From Escherichia coli (GTDB lineage: Bacteria; Pseudomonadota; Gammaproteobacteria; Enterobacterales; Enterobacteriaceae), in the NCBI RefSeq assembly GCF_044324875.1, contig NZ_CP172185.1: a DNA stretch of 64,000 nt; one strand, given 5' to 3'. Position 1 is the first letter of the stretch. Every line of letters begins with the position of its first letter. Of this stretch, positions 30,474 to 46,579 are shown piece after piece. The notes beneath the pieces were generated by a model. That model was not told where the DNA came from. It searched no databases and worked only from the letters and a program-made list of their open reading frames with translations. The translations under genes were made by a program, and so were the position numbers.

Positions 30474-30791
30474 ATGAAAAAGATAGCTGCTATATCATTA
30501 ATTAGTGTTTTTCTTATGTCTGGGTGTGCTGTACATAATGATGAGACAAGTATCGGTAAATTTGGTCTTGCATATAAAAGTAATATTCAGCGTAAACTCG
30601 ATAACCAATACTACACCGAAGCCGAAGCTTCTTTAGCCAGGGGCAGAATATCTGGTGCAGAAAATATAGTAAAAAATGATGCAGCTCATTTCTGTGTTAC
30701 TCAGGGCAAAAAAATGCAGATAGTTGACCTGAAGACAGAAGGTGCAGGATTACATGGCGTCGCTCGTCTGACATTCAAATGTGGAGAGTGA
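30474..30791 (+). CDS. yegR: Small lipoprotein YegR
   Basis: ORF 30414..30791; start taken at MKKIAAISLISVFLMSGC (lipobox LMSGC) with ggaagg RBS. Confidence 0.8.
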   Translation: MKKIAAISLISVFLMSGCAVHNDETSIGKFGLAYKSNIQRKLDNQYYTEAEASLARGRISGAENIVKNDAAHFCVTQGKKMQIVDLKTEGAGLHGVARLTFKCGE

Positions 30792-30961
30792 GAATATTTT
30801 TTGGTAAGCGTCAAACATGCGCGTTCTGGTTGTGCTTAGCCGGAACCTGTGCGAGCACGATGCCGTTACGTGAAAGGCATCGTGCTATGAAGGGAGATTC
30901 TATCGATGTGGTCAATGGAAGACGGTCACCTGGGATCAATCCGTCTCTATGGTTTATGCAC

Positions 30962-31048
30962 AAAAAATAAGCCCGTGTAAGGGAGATTACACAGGCTAAG
31001 GAGGTGGTTCCTGGTACAGCTAGCATTTTATGGGTTATGTTTTTCAGC
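30962..31048 (-). ncRNA. cyaR: CyaR (RyeE) Hfq-dependent sRNA
   Basis: Minus-strand sequence gctgaaaaacataacccataaaatgctagctgtaccaggaaccacctccttagcctgtgtaatctcccttacacgggcttatttttt matches CyaR as I remember it, including the terminator hairpin and U-tail. Confidence 0.9.
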
Positions 31049-31079
31049 GAAACAGATGATAACCTTAATAAATGCAGCT

Positions 31080-31101
31080 GTATGTGATCGGTTTCTAAGA
31101 A
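31080..31101 (-). promoter_or_regulatory. Probable CRP site of the cyaR promoter (centred near -41.5)
   Basis: tgtgatcggtttctaa (TGTGA half-site at 31083-31087) about 41 bp upstream of the CyaR 5' end; -10 tatcat 7 nt upstream of the start. Confidence 0.5.
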
Positions 31102-31132
31102 TTTTCCATCCGGGAAAAATAATCGAAATTAA

Positions 31133-32494
31133 TCACTTACCGTGGGGGTTACGCGTGGTTTCCCCGGAGAAATTACGCATCAGCAGCGCGTAATTTAGCT
31201 CAAGATCCTGCGGCACCGGGATCCACACAGTATAACCATCGCCCGGTGCGACCGGCATTGCTTCGCCTTTGGCGTTTTCCATGTGCTCAAGGGTAAAGTT
31301 AATGTTCCCTTGCGGCGTCATCAGCTCAAGGCTGTCGCCAACGGAGAATTTATTTTTCACCGCTACCGCCGCGAGGTCGCCCTTGCGCTCACTGGTAAAC
31401 TCACCAACAAACTGCTGGCGGTCAGAAACTGAATAACCGTATTCGTAGTTCTGATAATCGTCGTGAGTATGACGACGCAGGAAACCTTCGGTATAGCCAC
31501 GATGCGCCAGACCTTCCAGGGTTTCCAGCAGGCTGGTATCGAATGGTTTTCCCGCAGCTGCGTCATCGATAGCTTTACGGTAAACCTGCGCGGTGCGTGC
31601 GCAATAGTAGAAAGATTTGGTACGGCCTTCGATTTTCAGCGAATGCACGCCCATTTTGGTCAGGCGTTCAACATGGGCGATGGCGCGCAGATCTTTCGAG
31701 TTCATGATGTAAGTGCCGTGCTCATCTTCAAACGCGGTCATATACTCGCCCGGACGCTGGGCTTCTTCGATCATAAACACTTTGTCGGTTGGTGCGCCGA
31801 TCCCCAGCGTCGGTTCAACGTTTTGCACCGGAATCGGTTCGTACTTGTGTACGATGTTGCCGACGTCATCTTCTTTCCCTTCCTGGACGTTATACTCCCA
31901 GCGGCAGGCGTTGGTGCAGGTGCCCTGGTTCGGGTCGCGCTTGTTGATATAGCCAGAGAGCAGGCAGCGACCGGAGTAGGCCATGCACAGCGCGCCGTGA
32001 ACGAAGATTTCGATCTCCATATCTGGCACCTGATTGCGGATCTCTTCAATCTCTTCCAGTGACAGTTCGCGAGAGAGGATCACGCGGGTCAGACCCATTT
32101 GCTGCCAGAATTTCACCGTCGCCCAGTTCACGGCGTTAGCCTGTACTGAGAGATGGATCGGCATTTCAGGGAAGTGCTCGCGCACCAGCATAATCAGCCC
32201 TGGATCAGACATAATCAGCGCATCCGGCCCCATTTCCACCACCGGTTTCAGGTCACGGATAAAGGTTTTCAGCTTGGCGTTGTGCGGTGCAATGTTGACC
32301 ACGACATAAAACTTTTTCCCCAGCGCGTGGGCTTCATTGATGCCGAGCTGAAGATTTTCGTGGTTAAATTCGTTGTTGCGCACACGCAGGGAGTAACGCG
32401 GCTGGCCCGCATAAACAGCATCTGCGCCATAAGCGAAAGCGTAACGCATATTTTTCAGCGTTCCCGCCGGGGAAAGGAGTTCCGGTTTAAACAT
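31133..32494 (-). CDS. yegQ: Peptidase U32-family protein
   Basis: 453-aa ORF MFKPELLSPAGTLKNMRYAFAYGADAVYAGQPRYSLR... Confidence 0.9.
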   Translation of the reverse strand: MFKPELLSPAGTLKNMRYAFAYGADAVYAGQPRYSLRVRNNEFNHENLQLGINEAHALGKKFYVVVNIAPHNAKLKTFIRDLKPVVEMGPDALIMSDPGLIMLVREHFPEMPIHLSVQANAVNWATVKFWQQMGLTRVILSRELSLEEIEEIRNQVPDMEIEIFVHGALCMAYSGRCLLSGYINKRDPNQGTCTNACRWEYNVQEGKEDDVGNIVHKYEPIPVQNVEPTLGIGAPTDKVFMIEEAQRPGEYMTAFEDEHGTYIMNSKDLRAIAHVERLTKMGVHSLKIEGRTKSFYYCARTAQVYRKAIDDAAAGKPFDTSLLETLEGLAHRGYTEGFLRRHTHDDYQNYEYGYSVSDRQQFVGEFTSERKGDLAAVAVKNKFSVGDSLELMTPQGNINFTLEHMENAKGEAMPVAPGDGYTVWIPVPQDLELNYALLMRNFSGETTRNPHGK

Positions 32495-32695
32495 AATTCT
32501 CTCGTTCTGATGACAGGTCAGATCCGCTTCACCTGATGAAGCGGCCAGGGGAGTGCCCCCACTTTAAGGGCGGGCATTGTAGCGCAATCGTCGGGGTTGG
32601 CTCCAGTGTAATTGTGATGAGCTTTTCGATGCCTGGCGTACAATTGACATCAGAATTGAGTATATTTACGACCGTGAATGCTAAGGAGTTAAAAC

Positions 32696-33301
32696 ATGTG
32701 GATGTTAAAGAAGGGAATCACGCTGGCTCTGTTGGTTCTGTTTTCTCTGCCCGCTACTGCCGGTCTTTCGCTGGAGGAGACTGCTCGTAAGGTGATTATC
32801 GGCTTTCAGCAAAAAGATGCTCAATTAATCAACTCGTTAATTGATAAAAAAACGGGGTTGTATGTTCTCTTCCAGCGTGGCGCTTCGATGGATGTCGAAA
32901 ATTTTAAGTCAATTGATTTTAAAACGCCTGTTCCCGAGTATTTGCTGTGGCCTTCGGCAGGGGAACATATTCCGCGAGATGAAGAGTTTGATAAGAAAAC
33001 TATCCCGGAATTTGACTGTGAACGTGGCTGGAATAAGCACGGATATTTTATTAGCAGCAGCGATACACACCATAAAGTCAGCCGTAATTTGGTCTTCACG
33101 CAGATGTTTGGTTCACCGCGAAACACTATTTCTGATGCGCAGATTGCCGCAGCGCGTCGAATGGAGTACGGGGCCGTGCGTGTGGTCGCTGCGCCAGAAG
33201 GGGGTAGCGATGGACTGGTATTTTATTTAAGTCAACTTTACGGTTATGACCGTGACTGGTATCTGACGGTGGTGGATCAGATTGGTGATTGTGGGGCGTG
33301 A
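32696..33301 (+). CDS. Hypothetical secreted protein (201 aa), unknown function
   Basis: Strong RBS aaggag 7 nt upstream; predicted Sec signal peptide MWMLKKGITLALLVLFSLPATA; two Cys in mature part; not recognised as a K-12 gene. Confidence 0.6.
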   Translation: MWMLKKGITLALLVLFSLPATAGLSLEETARKVIIGFQQKDAQLINSLIDKKTGLYVLFQRGASMDVENFKSIDFKTPVPEYLLWPSAGEHIPRDEEFDKKTIPEFDCERGWNKHGYFISSSDTHHKVSRNLVFTQMFGSPRNTISDAQIAAARRMEYGAVRVVAAPEGGSDGLVFYLSQLYGYDRDWYLTVVDQIGDCGA

Positions 33302-33331
33302 TAAAGATTTATTCGCCCGCAAGCAGTGATG

Positions 33332-34732
33332 CTATTTAAAAGGTATGTAACCCCTTAATCTGTTGTGAAGTTCCGGATTGCGGGTAAAAAGCGCCTGAAG
33401 TTGCTGACGCTGAAGAGCATTCGGTTGAATGCCCGAAAGATTGAAATTGCGTTGCCATATCGCGAGCTGTTTACCTGCAAATTCTTCAGTTAGCTTGTGT
33501 TGCGATTGCAGAAGAAGAATTAAACCGTCCCATTTGTTCAAGTTATGATACAACCGACAATATGCGCAAGCATGTTTAACTGACGGTGCGTTTTCCAGCA
33601 ACTGACGTATTTCCTCGAACGTGAGCGGAACTCGACACCATACACAGATGTTAACCATAAATCGAAGCCCGGAGGCGTCCGGGTTAGCTAGTGTGGTCAG
33701 AATAATCCCTTTGACACCACCATCAGGATTGGCTTTCGCAAGAATATACATAGCGGCTAATCGCAGTGGGAATACATCCTGTGATAATCCCCATTCAGCC
33801 AGTTTTAAAATATTGGCATCATGAATGGAGTCCAGCCCGTATAAAGCTGCCCGGCGCTGTGAGGGAGTATATTCAGTCGAGGTGACAACATGACGCCAGA
33901 ATTGCGCAACATCCATGACGTCATTAAGCATGTTTTTAGCGCGTAGACGGATCAACATATTGTTATCCAGCAGTAATGCGCTGTACAGAGCCGGAGGAAT
34001 TTCTATAGCTCGGTCAGTAAGGCTAAACAACGTTGCTTGTCGAATACGCGGCCAGCGGTCTTTTAACAGACGAGTTAATACCGCTTCGCTTAACGATAAT
34101 TGTTGACGCAGCCAGTGGGTGACTGCCAGCATTCGTAAACCTTCGTCGGGCTGCTTGAGTATTAAAAGCAGCGAAGATTCATCATTAAAGTAGCCATATT
34201 CAATCAGCGTTTGTAATACTGCGCGGGAAAGTTTTTTATCAGGGCAAGTAAGCCAGCACGTTAATTGCGGGCGGTTATTTTCTTCCAGCAAGAAGCTCAG
34301 TATCTCGTTTACAAATGCACGATGATCGTAACGCTGGCATTGGAGAAGGTTACGTATCATGGGAAGATTAACCGCAAATGCCGCTGCATTCTTATCCTTC
34401 TTTAAATGACGTAACGCTATGGTTGCAGCAAGGCGAACCTCTTTTACCCAGTCATTAGCTGCAAGTAATAATTCTTCTATAGCTGCAACATCCTCTTTTT
34501 GTCCCAGACATTGCACGGCCTTTTCTCGTATATATCCATTGTGGTGATGGGTAAGCTGGCAAAGAACCAGAGTATCGTTGAGATCACAATCATGCGCTAT
34601 ATAATTGCCTGGATCGGCTATCATCGCCTGGAGTTGTTGCTGGATAAGAAATAATTCACAGTCAACAGAATTATTCATTTCGACGTTAAACAAAACCCTG
34701 CGTGTAAATAATGTACGCAATCCTTTGAGCAT
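33332..34732 (-). CDS. Hypothetical cytoplasmic protein (466 aa) with HEAT/armadillo-like repeats, unknown function
   Basis: Long ORF with recurring alpha-helical repeat motifs (IREKAVQCLGQ, VRLAATIALRHL, LRMLAVTHWL, QRRAALYGLDSI, LRLAAMYILAKA); aagga RBS; no nucleotide-binding motifs seen. Confidence 0.6.
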   Translation of the reverse strand: MLKGLRTLFTRRVLFNVEMNNSVDCELFLIQQQLQAMIADPGNYIAHDCDLNDTLVLCQLTHHHNGYIREKAVQCLGQKEDVAAIEELLLAANDWVKEVRLAATIALRHLKKDKNAAAFAVNLPMIRNLLQCQRYDHRAFVNEILSFLLEENNRPQLTCWLTCPDKKLSRAVLQTLIEYGYFNDESSLLLILKQPDEGLRMLAVTHWLRQQLSLSEAVLTRLLKDRWPRIRQATLFSLTDRAIEIPPALYSALLLDNNMLIRLRAKNMLNDVMDVAQFWRHVVTSTEYTPSQRRAALYGLDSIHDANILKLAEWGLSQDVFPLRLAAMYILAKANPDGGVKGIILTTLANPDASGLRFMVNICVWCRVPLTFEEIRQLLENAPSVKHACAYCRLYHNLNKWDGLILLLQSQHKLTEEFAGKQLAIWQRNFNLSGIQPNALQRQQLQALFTRNPELHNRLRGYIPFK

Positions 34733-34854
34733 AATTTTCCTTATCAGTTATGAGGAGAAAACTCATTTCATGATTAATAATTTCTTGAGGGATAGTAACT
34801 CTGTGGTGAGAGAAAATAAAGCCGGACGCCAACAACCCACGCCCGGCATCGTAA

Positions 34855-35187
34855 TTACGTATTGTCTTTCACCGTCTGGCTTGTGCCATTGGCTTTAACG
34901 GAGGCAATTCCGGTTTCACGAGATTGCGCGGTGGCGTACATCTGGCTGGAGCCGATAATTTGATGATTGGCGGCTTTCAGATTGAAATAGAATTTGCCGT
35001 TGCTTGCCGTTTTTTTCTCATAGCGTTCTTCTTGCGGGCTGTTGCTACGCACCGATGCGATGCCCTTTTCCGCAGAGGCTTTTGAGGTATACAGCTCGCT
35101 GGTGAGGATAGTCTCACCATTGCCCGCTTTTAGCACAAACCGGAACTGATTATCACTGCTCTTACTGAGTTCAAACCAACCAGCCAT
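34855..35187 (-). CDS. yegP: YegP (UPF0339 / DUF1508 tandem-repeat small protein)
   Basis: ORF 34855..35226; start taken at MAGWFELSKSSDNQFRFVLKAGNGE (110 aa). Confidence 0.85.
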   Translation of the reverse strand: MAGWFELSKSSDNQFRFVLKAGNGETILTSELYTSKASAEKGIASVRSNSPQEERYEKKTASNGKFYFNLKAANHQIIGSSQMYATAQSRETGIASVKANGTSQTVKDNT

Positions 35188-46401: not shown

Positions 46402-46419
46402 AGCCAATAAGGGAGAAAA
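46402..46419 (-). promoter_or_regulatory. BaeR box in the mdtA promoter
   Basis: Minus-strand tttttctcccttattggc, close to the BaeR consensus as I recall it (TTTTTCTCCATDATTGGC), about 55 bp upstream of mdtA. Confidence 0.6.
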
Positions 46420-46579
46420 ATGGAGGAATTATGAAACACTGTCGGGAATCGTCTGAATGACGGGCACATTTGCGAGCACGCATCCAGTAATAACACATGA
46501 AACTATTTTATCTACGCGTTAGCGATAGACTGCTTGCATGGCGAAAGGAGGTAAGCCGACGATTTCAGCGGGACGCTGA

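Follow-up and report, generated by a model that had tools for sequence, protein, structure and literature searches.

Variable islets have been described at the yegQ locus of Salmonella, including SAIDI-1 in S. Typhi and an islet of the Paratyphi C type (Barretto & Fowler 2020, PMC7400221). SAIDI-1 is an orphan-immunity islet, with t0721 as a flanking gene; t0721 and t0736 are common residents of the locus, and homologs of these two genes occupy it in other proteobacteria without an islet (PMC7400221). Zhang et al. (2012, PMC3482391) listed HEAT and NTF2 folds among immunity families, with Imm-HEAT, Imm-NTF2 and Imm-NTF2-2 acting as toxin-binding immunity domains, and described strain-variable polyimmunity loci that are free of toxin genes.

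Here we analyzed the same chromosomal site in a 64,000-nucleotide stretch of Escherichia coli DNA (assembly GCF_044324875.1, contig NZ_CP172185.1), referred to below as the window. Two convergent genes lie between yegQ and yegP, one encoding a predicted exported protein of NTF2-like fold (ORF A) and the other a cytoplasmic HEAT-type solenoid (ORF B), the same two folds as those immunity domains. The segment that carries them very probably represents one of the remaining alleles of an old accessory region of mosaic make-up, which would extend from baeR/yegP to yegQ across the Enterobacteriaceae and correspond to the yegQ locus of Salmonella, rather than a freshly integrated element.

Structure of the yegQ–yegP interval

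The original prediction placed two convergent ORFs between yegQ and yegP and held that K-12 lacks them; both claims agree with the comparison of the window with K-12. The gap between the two flanking genes is 146 bp in K-12, somewhat more than the roughly 100 bp first given. The interval of about 2.4 kb in the window is real: K-12 homology is lost after position 32585 and regained at 34821, so that 2,235 bp stand in place of 21 bp (Table 1). The identities of the flanking genes are backed by the RefSeq annotation of the strain N3 locus, which is 99.1% identical. A higher AT content of the insert, first judged by eye, was recovered by computation, with 44.5% GC in the extra segment versus 50.5% across the window and GC3 values of 0.475 (ORF A) and 0.415 (ORF B) versus 0.56–0.68 for yegP, baeR, baeS, yegQ and mdtD. 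CyaR lies nearby, as had been stated; the P2-like prophage remnant that had been invoked alongside it belongs to the opposite side of yegQ and does not occur in the window. Candidate sigma-70 promoters for either ORF scored no better than shuffled sequence.

Table 1. Coordinates of the features of the interval and its surroundings (positions in the window).
Feature	Position	Strand	Remarks
CyaR	30965-31050	-	
yegQ, core flank	31133..32494	-	tRNA ho5U modification, peptidase U32 family; ORF and N3 RefSeq annotation
yegQ upstream leader	32495..32585		91 bp; also in K-12; 84-88% conserved in other genera
Segment without K-12 counterpart	32586..34820		2,235 bp; 44.5% GC
yegQ-side stretch	32586..32617		about 32 bp; common to all occupied alleles examined (ParDE, B2 block, TPR, HEAT)
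Shine-Dalgarno of ORF A	32683-32688	+	AAGGAG, 7 nt ahead of ATG; read from sequence
Predicted signal peptide of ORF A	32696..32761	+	22 residues, cleavage ATA/G; sequence inspection, hydropathy
ORF A	32696..33301	+	predicted exported 201-aa protein, NTF2-like fold; sequence, AlphaFold model
ORF B	33332..34732	-	cytoplasmic protein of 466 aa, modeled as an all-alpha HEAT/PBS-type solenoid with 29 helices
yegP terminator hairpin	34821..34850	-	GCCGGGCGTGGGTTGTTGGCGTCCGGC on minus strand; right-hand junction in every allele
yegP, flank	34855..35187	-	DUF1508 family; ORF and N3 RefSeq annotation

The yegQ leader on the left holds a hairpin with a 9-bp stem, and the T-tract of the yegP terminator on the right falls inside variable DNA. 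A reading of K-12 as a plain deletion, lacking about 30 bp common to all occupied alleles, was rejected because K-12 retains a diverged 21-nt version of the yegQ-side stretch. The junctions show TAAA microhomology only and thus cannot by themselves separate a deletion from an ancestral empty site; the argument for antiquity is therefore based on synteny across genera.

Distribution in E. coli and position in other genera

Among 5,426 complete E. coli genomes, ORF A DNA was found in 302 (5.6%), comprising 6 close alleles and 296 copies at about 88% identity inside a block encoding PcfJ, DUF1266 and DUF4034 proteins, for which UTI89, CFT073 and LF82 are example strains. ORF B DNA occurs in 96 genomes, mostly without ORF A; it is full length in 39 and present only as fragments in 57, and about 98% of E. 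coli do without it but retain BaeSR. The whole interval with both genes is confined to about 5 of the 5,426, and the breakpoints indicate that ORF A (approximately 32618–33332) and ORF B are exchanged separately. The two genes are thus independent single-gene modules, and the two-gene insertion of the original prediction does not hold. A near-exact peptide-pattern scan of genome contigs for ORF B returned one locus, which carries little information on distribution. Other cargo at the same E. coli junction includes ParDE (1,846 of the 5,426 genomes), IS1, the PcfJ/DUF1266/DUF4034 block and a TPR gene, and Rhs-orphan arrays occupy this junction in Salmonella.

Homologs of both genes occupy this site in other genera. 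Those of ORF A are divergent from yegQ in Klebsiella aerogenes (55% identity), Klebsiella sp. MISC125 (51%, with a second, tandem paralog) and Salmonella (45%). Homologs of ORF B lie directly behind baeR in Yokenella regensburgei and four further Enterobacteriaceae assemblies; across six distinct non-Escherichia gene orders the homolog is first after baeR or, in one of them, second after a TPR gene, always on the strand of baeR and with a gap of only about 85–130 bp. In E. coli, yegP alone intervenes between baeR and ORF B. The flanking baeR and yegQ of these genera are 91–93% identical to those of the window, whereas the homologs of the two ORFs are only 37–60% identical, with both reading frames kept. 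Such diverged homologs at the same site argue that the genes are old residents that have been repeatedly lost in E. coli. Their ancestral positions would be divergent from yegQ for ORF A and, for ORF B, close behind baeR in the same orientation; in most E. coli both would have been lost or swapped for other cargo.

ORF A, a predicted exported NTF2-fold protein

The strong ribosome-binding site and Sec-type signal peptide that had been noted for ORF A accord with its AAGGAG element and hydropathy. By inspection, the N-terminus (MWMLKKGITLALLVLFSLPATA/GLS) combines two lysines, a hydrophobic core and an A-x-A cleavage motif, and the 19-residue Kyte-Doolittle mean peaks at 2.03 at residue 8. Given these n, h and c regions and the A-x-A site, the protein is predicted to be exported by Sec. 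Signal or lipobox-like leaders are also visible at the N-termini of the printed homologs, and AFDB relatives carry the name "Lipoprotein." The AlphaFold model (pLDDT 88) is an alpha+beta cone in which N-terminal helices pack against a curved antiparallel sheet, as in the NTF2-like fold. Within the mature protein of about 180 aa, the model shows two additional helices and an insertion of about 45 residues that lacks regular structure. Two conserved cysteines, C108 and C199, probably form a disulfide, and the C-terminus carries a D-C-(S/G)-A motif.

Pfam yielded no match for ORF A even at E<=10, and none of 80 family members matched any Pfam family at E<=0.001. NCBIfam likewise yielded no match, and the sequence falls outside described NTF2-like families such as SnoaL, DUF4440, Imm-NTF2 and Imm-NTF2-2. 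Whatever its function, ORF A defines an exported NTF2-fold family without a Pfam model, comprising about 215 clusters at 50% identity. The family ranges over Bacteroidota, Campylobacterota, Acinetobacter and Enterobacterales, mostly as secreted proteins or lipoproteins of about 195–230 aa. A putative 2,822-aa homolog (P0135) was discarded, its match being restricted to a short repeat.

A rival explanation regards ORF A as a housekeeping-type envelope protein with a cell-wall or lipid ligand or a partner in the periplasm, unrelated to conflict and dispensable in E. coli. The breadth of the family and its mostly secreted or lipoprotein character favor this explanation, as do unremarkable homolog neighborhoods and a place beside yegQ that is stable across genera. 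Structural relatives further away bear annotations as SPOR-domain protein or DUF4348, and the former hints at a peptidoglycan-associated envelope role, which argues against immunity. Two fusions also count for the envelope role: one ORF A-type domain is joined to lipocalin-like DUF4923 (E 2e-4) and another to a faint BamE match (E 0.016). Two further proteins were instead counted for a link with bacterial conflict: in the secreted or lipoprotein-type P0151 the domain is fused to an LRR domain, and in P0054 it stands alongside faint MORN-type repeats; as the MORN_2 match in fusion proteins is faint (E 0.18), it was left out as evidence for polyimmunity fusions. However, a housekeeping role is difficult to reconcile with carriage by so small a fraction of E. 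coli and with rapid evolution: dN/dS between E. coli alleles is 0.33, and identity is 45–55% between genera whose yegQ is 92–93% identical. Tandem divergent paralogs in Klebsiella and the frequency of frameshifted copies also speak against it. We consider it unlikely.

ORF B, a cytoplasmic HEAT-type solenoid

ORF B begins 122 bp past the stop of yegP, on the same strand, as originally described, and its assignment as a cytoplasmic HEAT-like protein has been upheld. Pfam HEAT_2 (PF13646) matches residues 57–108 (i-Evalue 8e-5), and alphaRep chains, which represent the PBS-HEAT consensus, match down to 7e-8. The AlphaFold model (pLDDT 87) is all-helical and forms a right-handed solenoid of paired antiparallel helices; about 2 of the roughly 14 repeats are visible by sequence. 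No hydrophobic segment was found in the protein (maximum KD 1.07), and a search of NCBIfam at E<=1 returned only a weak PRK13800 repeat match.

The constant location of ORF B homologs close behind baeR, on the same strand in six non-Escherichia gene orders and with only yegP between in E. coli, raises the alternative that ORF B is an accessory of BaeSR/MdtABCD, a HEAT scaffold binding BaeR, BaeS or an efflux component and expressed with or after the operon. Translational coupling, suggested by a called 4-bp overlap between the HEAT gene and baeR (L017–L020), was rejected as a gene-calling artifact because the N-terminal extensions are unconserved and the conserved start lies about 85–125 nt downstream, past a hairpin. 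A hairpin follows baeR in both intergenic sequences read (L017 and L019), and in the window the terminator of yegP lies ahead of ORF B. Regulation of ORF A or ORF B by BaeR was also dropped, since the only BaeR box found is at the mdtA promoter (46403–46420) and none lies near either gene. Moreover, the great majority of E. coli keep BaeSR without ORF B, a Rahnella homolog (32% identity) is sited elsewhere, and flank synteny alone would hold any resident in place. An accessory role is accordingly distinctly unlikely. Whatever the function, the fixed place of the HEAT gene after baeR offers a testable lead for BaeSR biology.

Selection and mobility

Both ORFs can be regarded as genuine genes given dN/dS values of 0.1–0.35, confident AlphaFold models and homologs in other genera, and the concern that they might be spurious is thereby removed. 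The dN/dS of ORF B is 0.19–0.35 among E. coli alleles and 0.11 against a 60% homolog; taken together, the two ORFs span 0.11–0.35 versus 0.01–0.07 for the flanks, values that indicate purifying but relaxed selection. Neither gene belongs to a characterized family, as had been anticipated. Degraded copies are nevertheless numerous, being truncated, IS1-interrupted or frameshifted, with a split copy in Escherichia sp. MOD1-EC7003. Together with the 57 of 96 ORF B genomes that hold fragments only, they could be taken to mean that both genes are functionless relics heading for loss. This is improbable, as intact copies keep dN/dS well under 1 over short and long distances and their frames are maintained across genera.

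A recently integrated foreign cassette, with the two genes forming a functional pair at an integration hotspot, would account for the absence of the segment from K-12 and most E. coli, its GC content below that of the flanks, and the many cargos with identical junctions. However, the two genes are distributed separately, and other genera carry diverged homologs at this very site. The segment is accompanied by no tRNA, integrase or other recombinase and shows neither terminal repeats nor a target-site duplication, and neither PHROGs nor INPHARED contained phage copies of either gene. PLSDB held no clearly mobile plasmid copy, its matches being a homolog on a Rahnella megaplasmid, a Salmonella chromosome filed under the wrong label and a fragment of 100 aa. 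The cassette explanation is thus largely refuted and very improbable; of the hotspot proposed in the original prediction, the variable site stands and evident integration does not. The least probable explanation, that the segment carries anti-phage defense genes, which variable islets often house, draws on weak PADLOC-DB v2 matches that span generic repeats of far larger models (ORF B versus HEAT-ARM_XIII at 1.8e-7, repeats only, 196 residues of a 1,972-position model; TPR and DUF4034 proteins of neighboring alleles versus PDC-S39 and PDC-S32 at E 1e-3 or weaker) and conflicts with the lack of any ORF A match or significant full-length component match for either ORF in that database, the lack of an enzymatic or NTPase domain in Pfam and NCBIfam searches, and the predicted periplasmic location of ORF A.

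A possible role in immunity

The old mosaic locus thus remains the preferred evolutionary and anatomical account, and the most likely role of its two residents, proposed with low confidence, is that of two independent toxin-neutralizing binding proteins. Each protein alone may act as a stoichiometric binder of a toxin delivered by competing bacteria. ORF A, whose NTF2-like cone contains a loop-and-helix insertion, would be exported by Sec to the periplasm and neutralize an effector acting there, while ORF B, with its approximately 14 HEAT-type hairpins, would stay in the cytoplasm and neutralize an effector acting in that compartment. Both would then be orphan immunity-type genes, like the cargo gathered by the same locus in Salmonella, where Rhs core-end fragments with small downstream ORFs and co-directional immunity arrays are found; the locus is strain-variable, and in the window it is free of toxin genes. 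An immunity function is a tentative proposal for which the odds are rather unfavorable, and the full account, joining the old mosaic locus to toxin neutralization, is plausible but falls somewhat short of even odds.

Several observations weigh against immunity. No toxin gene, Rhs or other, was found beside ORF A, ORF B or their homologs in about 15 contexts, a small sample for the wide family of ORF A. Neither protein matched the Pfam Imm families or the YibA model. Polyimmunity arrays run in one direction, whereas these two genes converge, and immunity cargo does not usually keep one chromosomal position while genera diverge. Furthermore, the authors of the SAIDI-1 study considered t0721 and t0736 to differ in source and function from immunity genes (PMC7400221). 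A HEAT-like gene near a filamentous hemagglutinin gene in Paraburkholderia was set aside, as it is divergent from the 5' end of that gene and not in an immunity position.

The recurrent residents of the baeR–yegQ region are exported NTF2-like (t0721-like), HEAT solenoid, TPR (t0736-like), DUF4034, DUF1266 and PcfJ-like proteins. The idea that they are what uneven erosion has left of a single ancient enterobacterial module, either of previously unrecognized immunity families or of a BaeSR-linked set, seems a long shot. In the BaeSR version, the module would be an envelope-stress accessory set with the HEAT protein as a connector downstream of baeR.

If the immunity reading of ORF A and ORF B is true, carrier E. 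coli would withstand particular effectors of the Enterobacteriaceae that compete with them in the gut, and the baeR–yegQ interval would be a pan-enterobacterial store of resistance genes, extending the SAIDI-1 concept of Salmonella. As two hypothetical genes at an already known variable locus, they are useful for annotation and not surprising.

Comparison with described systems

The resemblance to the Imm-HEAT and Imm-NTF2 families is one of fold. Neither ORF matched them by sequence; the segment consists of two convergent genes with no recognized Imm domain and forms no co-directional array. Imm-NTF2 pairs with the nuclease-type Tox-NucA (PMC3482391), a toxin expected to work in the cytoplasm, whereas ORF A is predicted to be exported. 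From the NTF2-like superfamily at large, including SnoaL and ketosteroid isomerase, ORF A differs by its insertion, extra helices, cysteine pair and D-C-(S/G)-A motif. The likeness of ORF B to E. coli YibA (PDB 1OYZ), a HEAT-repeat protein encoded after rhsA, is a generic match of the HEAT fold at only 8% identity. YibA has about 280 aa versus 466 aa for ORF B, no rhs gene adjoins ORF B, neither phmmer nor a profile search with ORF B recovered 1OYZ from the PDB at E<=10, and ORF B did not match PRK09687 in NCBIfam, which places it outside the YibA family.

The Salmonella islets are the closest counterparts by location. The window lacks their AT-rich orphan-immunity, Rhs, PAAR and CdiI cargo, and the SAIDI-1 paper does not feature ORF B; its HEAT protein, SPC1578, is of the YibA/PRK09687 type and is unmatched by ORF B. 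The yegQ-adjacent gene of a Salmonella islet of the Paratyphi C type is the 45% homolog of ORF A, and its position, rather than its sequence, identifies it as t0721. Similarly, the TPR gene that part of the E. coli alleles carry shares 61% identity with the TPR gene adjoining DUF4034 in Salmonella, which by position is t0736.

The interval between yegQ and yegP

The window runs opposite to the gene order of K-12 and reads locally yegS, yegR, CyaR, yegQ, the interval, yegP, baeR, baeS and mdtD. Two genes were found in the interval exactly where, and on the strands on which, the original prediction had placed them (table below). The K-12 gap is indeed short, at 146 bp. In alignment, homology of the window to K-12 stops at 32585 and restarts at 34821; thus, 2,235 bp in the window replace 21 bp of K-12. 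This extra segment has a GC content of 44.5% against 50.5% for the whole window, and GC3 is 0.475 in ORF A and 0.415 in ORF B versus 0.56–0.68 in yegP, baeR, baeS, yegQ and mdtD, which agrees with the AT-richness previously judged by eye.

The 91-bp yegQ 5' leader (32495-32585) is kept at 84–88% across genera and contains a perfect 9-bp-stem hairpin, CCGCUUCAUCAGGUGAAGCGG (yegQ strand); an Rfam search of this leader matched no family, and its overall folding z-score was unremarkable (-0.49). The P2 remnant (ogrK and a D-gene fragment) of the K-12 yegR–yegQ gap is absent at 30791-31133 of the window, where yegR and CyaR are spaced by ~170 bp.

Features of the window and of L025, the Salmonella Abortusequi record CP075030.1 (5000-30000)
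Feature	Sequence	Coordinates	Strand	Remark
CyaR sRNA	window	30965-31050	-	Rfam, 100.7 bits
yegQ	window	31133-32494	-	
ORF A	window	32696-33301	+	201 aa
ORF B	window	33332-34732	-	466 aa
yegP	window	34855-35187	-	
Rhs core-end fragment	L025	4451-4807		
Rhs core-end fragment	L025	5565-5717		
Rhs core-end fragment	L025	6665-7013		
H-repeat transposase fragment	L025	3724-3984		

Coding status and protein families

Both ORFs, annotated in RefSeq as "hypothetical protein" (ORF A) and "HEAT repeat domain-containing protein" (ORF B), are real genes; the concern that they might be spurious is answered by their dN/dS and by confident AlphaFold models. Comparison of E. coli alleles gave a dN/dS of 0.33 for ORF A and 0.19–0.35 for ORF B; with a 60% homolog as the reference, ORF B gave 0.11. 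The flanking genes have values of 0.01–0.07. Both are therefore selected as proteins, yet evolve 5–10 times faster than their neighbors.

ORF A represents an exported NTF2-fold family outside Pfam, one of the two main points of this analysis. A ribosome-binding AAGGAG lies 7 nt 5' of its ATG, and a signal peptide of the classical type is predicted, as had been anticipated (MWMLKKGITLALLVLFSLPATA/G). ORF A had no match in Pfam, NCBIfam, PADLOC or PHROGs, and none of 80 relatives matched a Pfam family. When 1.84 billion representative proteins were searched with a profile, 215 clusters were recovered (E ≤ 1e-3); most members are 195–230 aa long and carry signal or lipoprotein leaders. In some relatives, the domain lies C-terminally in a larger protein of secreted or lipoprotein type; one such protein fuses it to an LRR domain. 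G54, G62, P104, C108, W112, G116, E157, W188, D194 and C199 are conserved, and the family ends in a D-C-(S/G)-A motif. A Foldseek search of AFDB50 with the AlphaFold model (pLDDT 88, pTM 0.83) found members in Salmonella, Leminorella, Limnobaculum, Entomomonas, Acinetobacter, Arcobacter, Sulfurovum and numerous Bacteroidota, with remoter relatives annotated as SPOR-domain or DUF4348 proteins.

In a metagenome assembly (L028, 6590-12585), a co-directional gene run adjoins a distant ORF A homolog. The run, made up of an LRR/DUF6892 protein, seven small ORFs (131–288 aa, almost all without a Pfam match) and a 1,663-aa DUF4132 protein, resembles a candidate polyimmunity-type array.

The HEAT-like character proposed for ORF B was borne out: residues 57–108 match HEAT_2 (8e-5), alphaRep proteins derived from PBS-HEAT are also matched, and the AlphaFold model (pLDDT 87, pTM 0.74) is an unbroken solenoid of 29 helices. 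A hydropathy calculation found no hydrophobic segment. The family is narrow, covering Escherichia, Shigella, Pseudocitrobacter, Yokenella, a few further assemblies and a Rahnella megaplasmid (32% homolog). A 43-kb E. coli plasmid (NZ_CP083887.1, 14857-15156) carries an unannotated 100-aa fragment that is 85% identical to the ORF B C-terminus.

Distribution and residence at the locus

The two genes had been proposed as a unit, which their distribution contradicts. A survey of 5,426 complete E. coli genomes placed ORF A DNA of any allele in 302, ORF B DNA of any part in 96 (full length in 39) and the whole interval, at least 80% covered, in only 5. Close ORF A alleles are present in 6 genomes, and an ~88% allele within a PcfJ/DUF1266/DUF4034 block in 296 (UTI89, CFT073, LF82 and others). 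ORF B mostly stands alone or adjoins a ParD remnant, the rest of the positive genomes carrying IS1-cut or 300-bp relics. ParDE occupies the site in 1,846 genomes and a TPR gene in 4; by subtraction, most remaining genomes look K-12-like. Pairwise breakpoints revealed that ORF A (~32618-33332) and ORF B were swapped independently.

In Escherichia sp. MOD1-EC7003 (L012, 3870-5329), ORF A is intact and the HEAT gene, another decaying allele, is broken into 233- and 232-aa ORFs. Toxin–antitoxin modules at the baeR–yegQ spot (L021, 1603-2197; L017, 7598-8343; L004, 2642-2800) include ParDE, a TacA/GNAT pair in one enterobacterial assembly and ParD relics adjoining the HEAT gene.

Evident integration, as originally predicted, was not observed: no flanking direct or inverted repeats, tRNA or recombinase were found at the segment, and phage collections held no copy of it or its genes. 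Plasmid-database matches comprised the Rahnella homolog (at another site), the 100-aa fragment, a mislabeled Salmonella chromosome and two weak distant matches in Paraburkholderia (conjugative megaplasmid) and Niallia. A mobile-cassette origin finds no support. All cargo shares its junctions, starting after ...GTGTAA(A/T)T and ending before ATAAA/GCCGGACGCC, the yegP terminator stem. The left segment survives in K-12 as a diverged 21-nt version, so the junction alone decides neither gain nor loss.

Diverged homologs occupy this position in other genera as well. Most simply, the segment is read as old and accessory, with its members differentially retained and perhaps shuffled by recombination in the conserved flanks. 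ORF A homologs there are divergent from yegQ across ~165–200 bp, in K. aerogenes (55% identity), Salmonella (45%) and Klebsiella sp. MISC125 (51%, with a second paralog behind it). The MISC125 copies (L010, 7001-8285) are tandem divergent paralogs of 199 and 204 aa, the second being 76% identical to the Salmonella copy, closer than to its neighbor's type. ORF B homologs (37–60%) lie 3' of baeR on the same strand, either first or, behind a TPR gene, second, in Yokenella regensburgei and four other assemblies. This constant baeR-proximal position is the second main point. The flanking BaeR and YegQ are 91–93% identical to those of the window. PcfJ, DUF1266, DUF4034 and TPR proteins are common to E. 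coli and Salmonella at 59–65% identity. Automatic calls in which the HEAT gene overlaps baeR by 4 bp (L017, 6001-6090; L019, 6001-6125) were rejected as artifacts, as the upstream extensions are unconserved and span the hairpin after baeR.

Candidate functions

An immunity-type role is a candidate for both genes. It is favored by the kind of locus, by rapid evolution and patchy distribution, by the tandem ORF A paralogs and the LRR fusion, and by the folds, since HEAT and NTF2 are among listed immunity families (Zhang et al. 2012, PMC3482391). ORF B also resembles YibA, and yibA neutralizes RhsA-CT toxicity (Poole et al. 2011, PMC3150448). However, none of ~15 contexts examined contained a toxin neighbor, neither gene belongs to a known Imm family by sequence, the two are convergent, and their chromosomal position is unusually stable. 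For ORF A, SPOR annotations of distant relatives and the Bacteroidota lipoproteins suggest an envelope or peptidoglycan-associated role. The constant place after baeR suggests a BaeSR-linked role for ORF B, but terminator-like hairpins separate it from baeR, the gene is missing from ~98% of E. coli, and no BaeR box lies near either gene; the only one in the window is in the mdtA promoter (46403-46420, minus strand, TTTTTCTCCCTTATTGGC, 1 mismatch). An anti-phage defense role of the segment has no support.

Comparison with the Salmonella yegQ locus

L025 is labeled a plasmid; it is chromosomal DNA, because it carries fbaB, yegS, yegQ, baeSR and mdtBC. Its interval reads yegQ, ORF A homolog, ~9 kb of low-GC DNA, TPR, DUF4034, DUF1266, PcfJ and baeR. 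The ~9 kb (31–40% GC) contains Rhs core-end fragments, at least three in number (NCBIfam RHS_core, 3e-39), together with the H-repeat transposase fragment and small ORFs, candidate immunity genes, including a Sel1 protein. Strain-variable polyimmunity loci were defined by Zhang et al. (2012, PMC3482391). The L025 interval is the "yegQ locus" of Barretto and Fowler (2020, PMC7400221), who describe the SAIDI-1 islet of S. Typhi as orphan T6SS/CDI immunity genes arranged in an array. Its end genes, t0721 and t0736 (TPR protein), have homologs at the locus in other, islet-free proteobacteria, and those authors consider their origin and function probably distinct from the immunity genes, which argues against an immunity-type role here. 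ORF A corresponds to t0721 by position. The original prediction, a novel insertion of two genes into an integration hotspot, is only partly right: the variable locus and the uncharacterized genes stand; ORF A and ORF B are two independent, fast-evolving residents of a locus already known from Salmonella.
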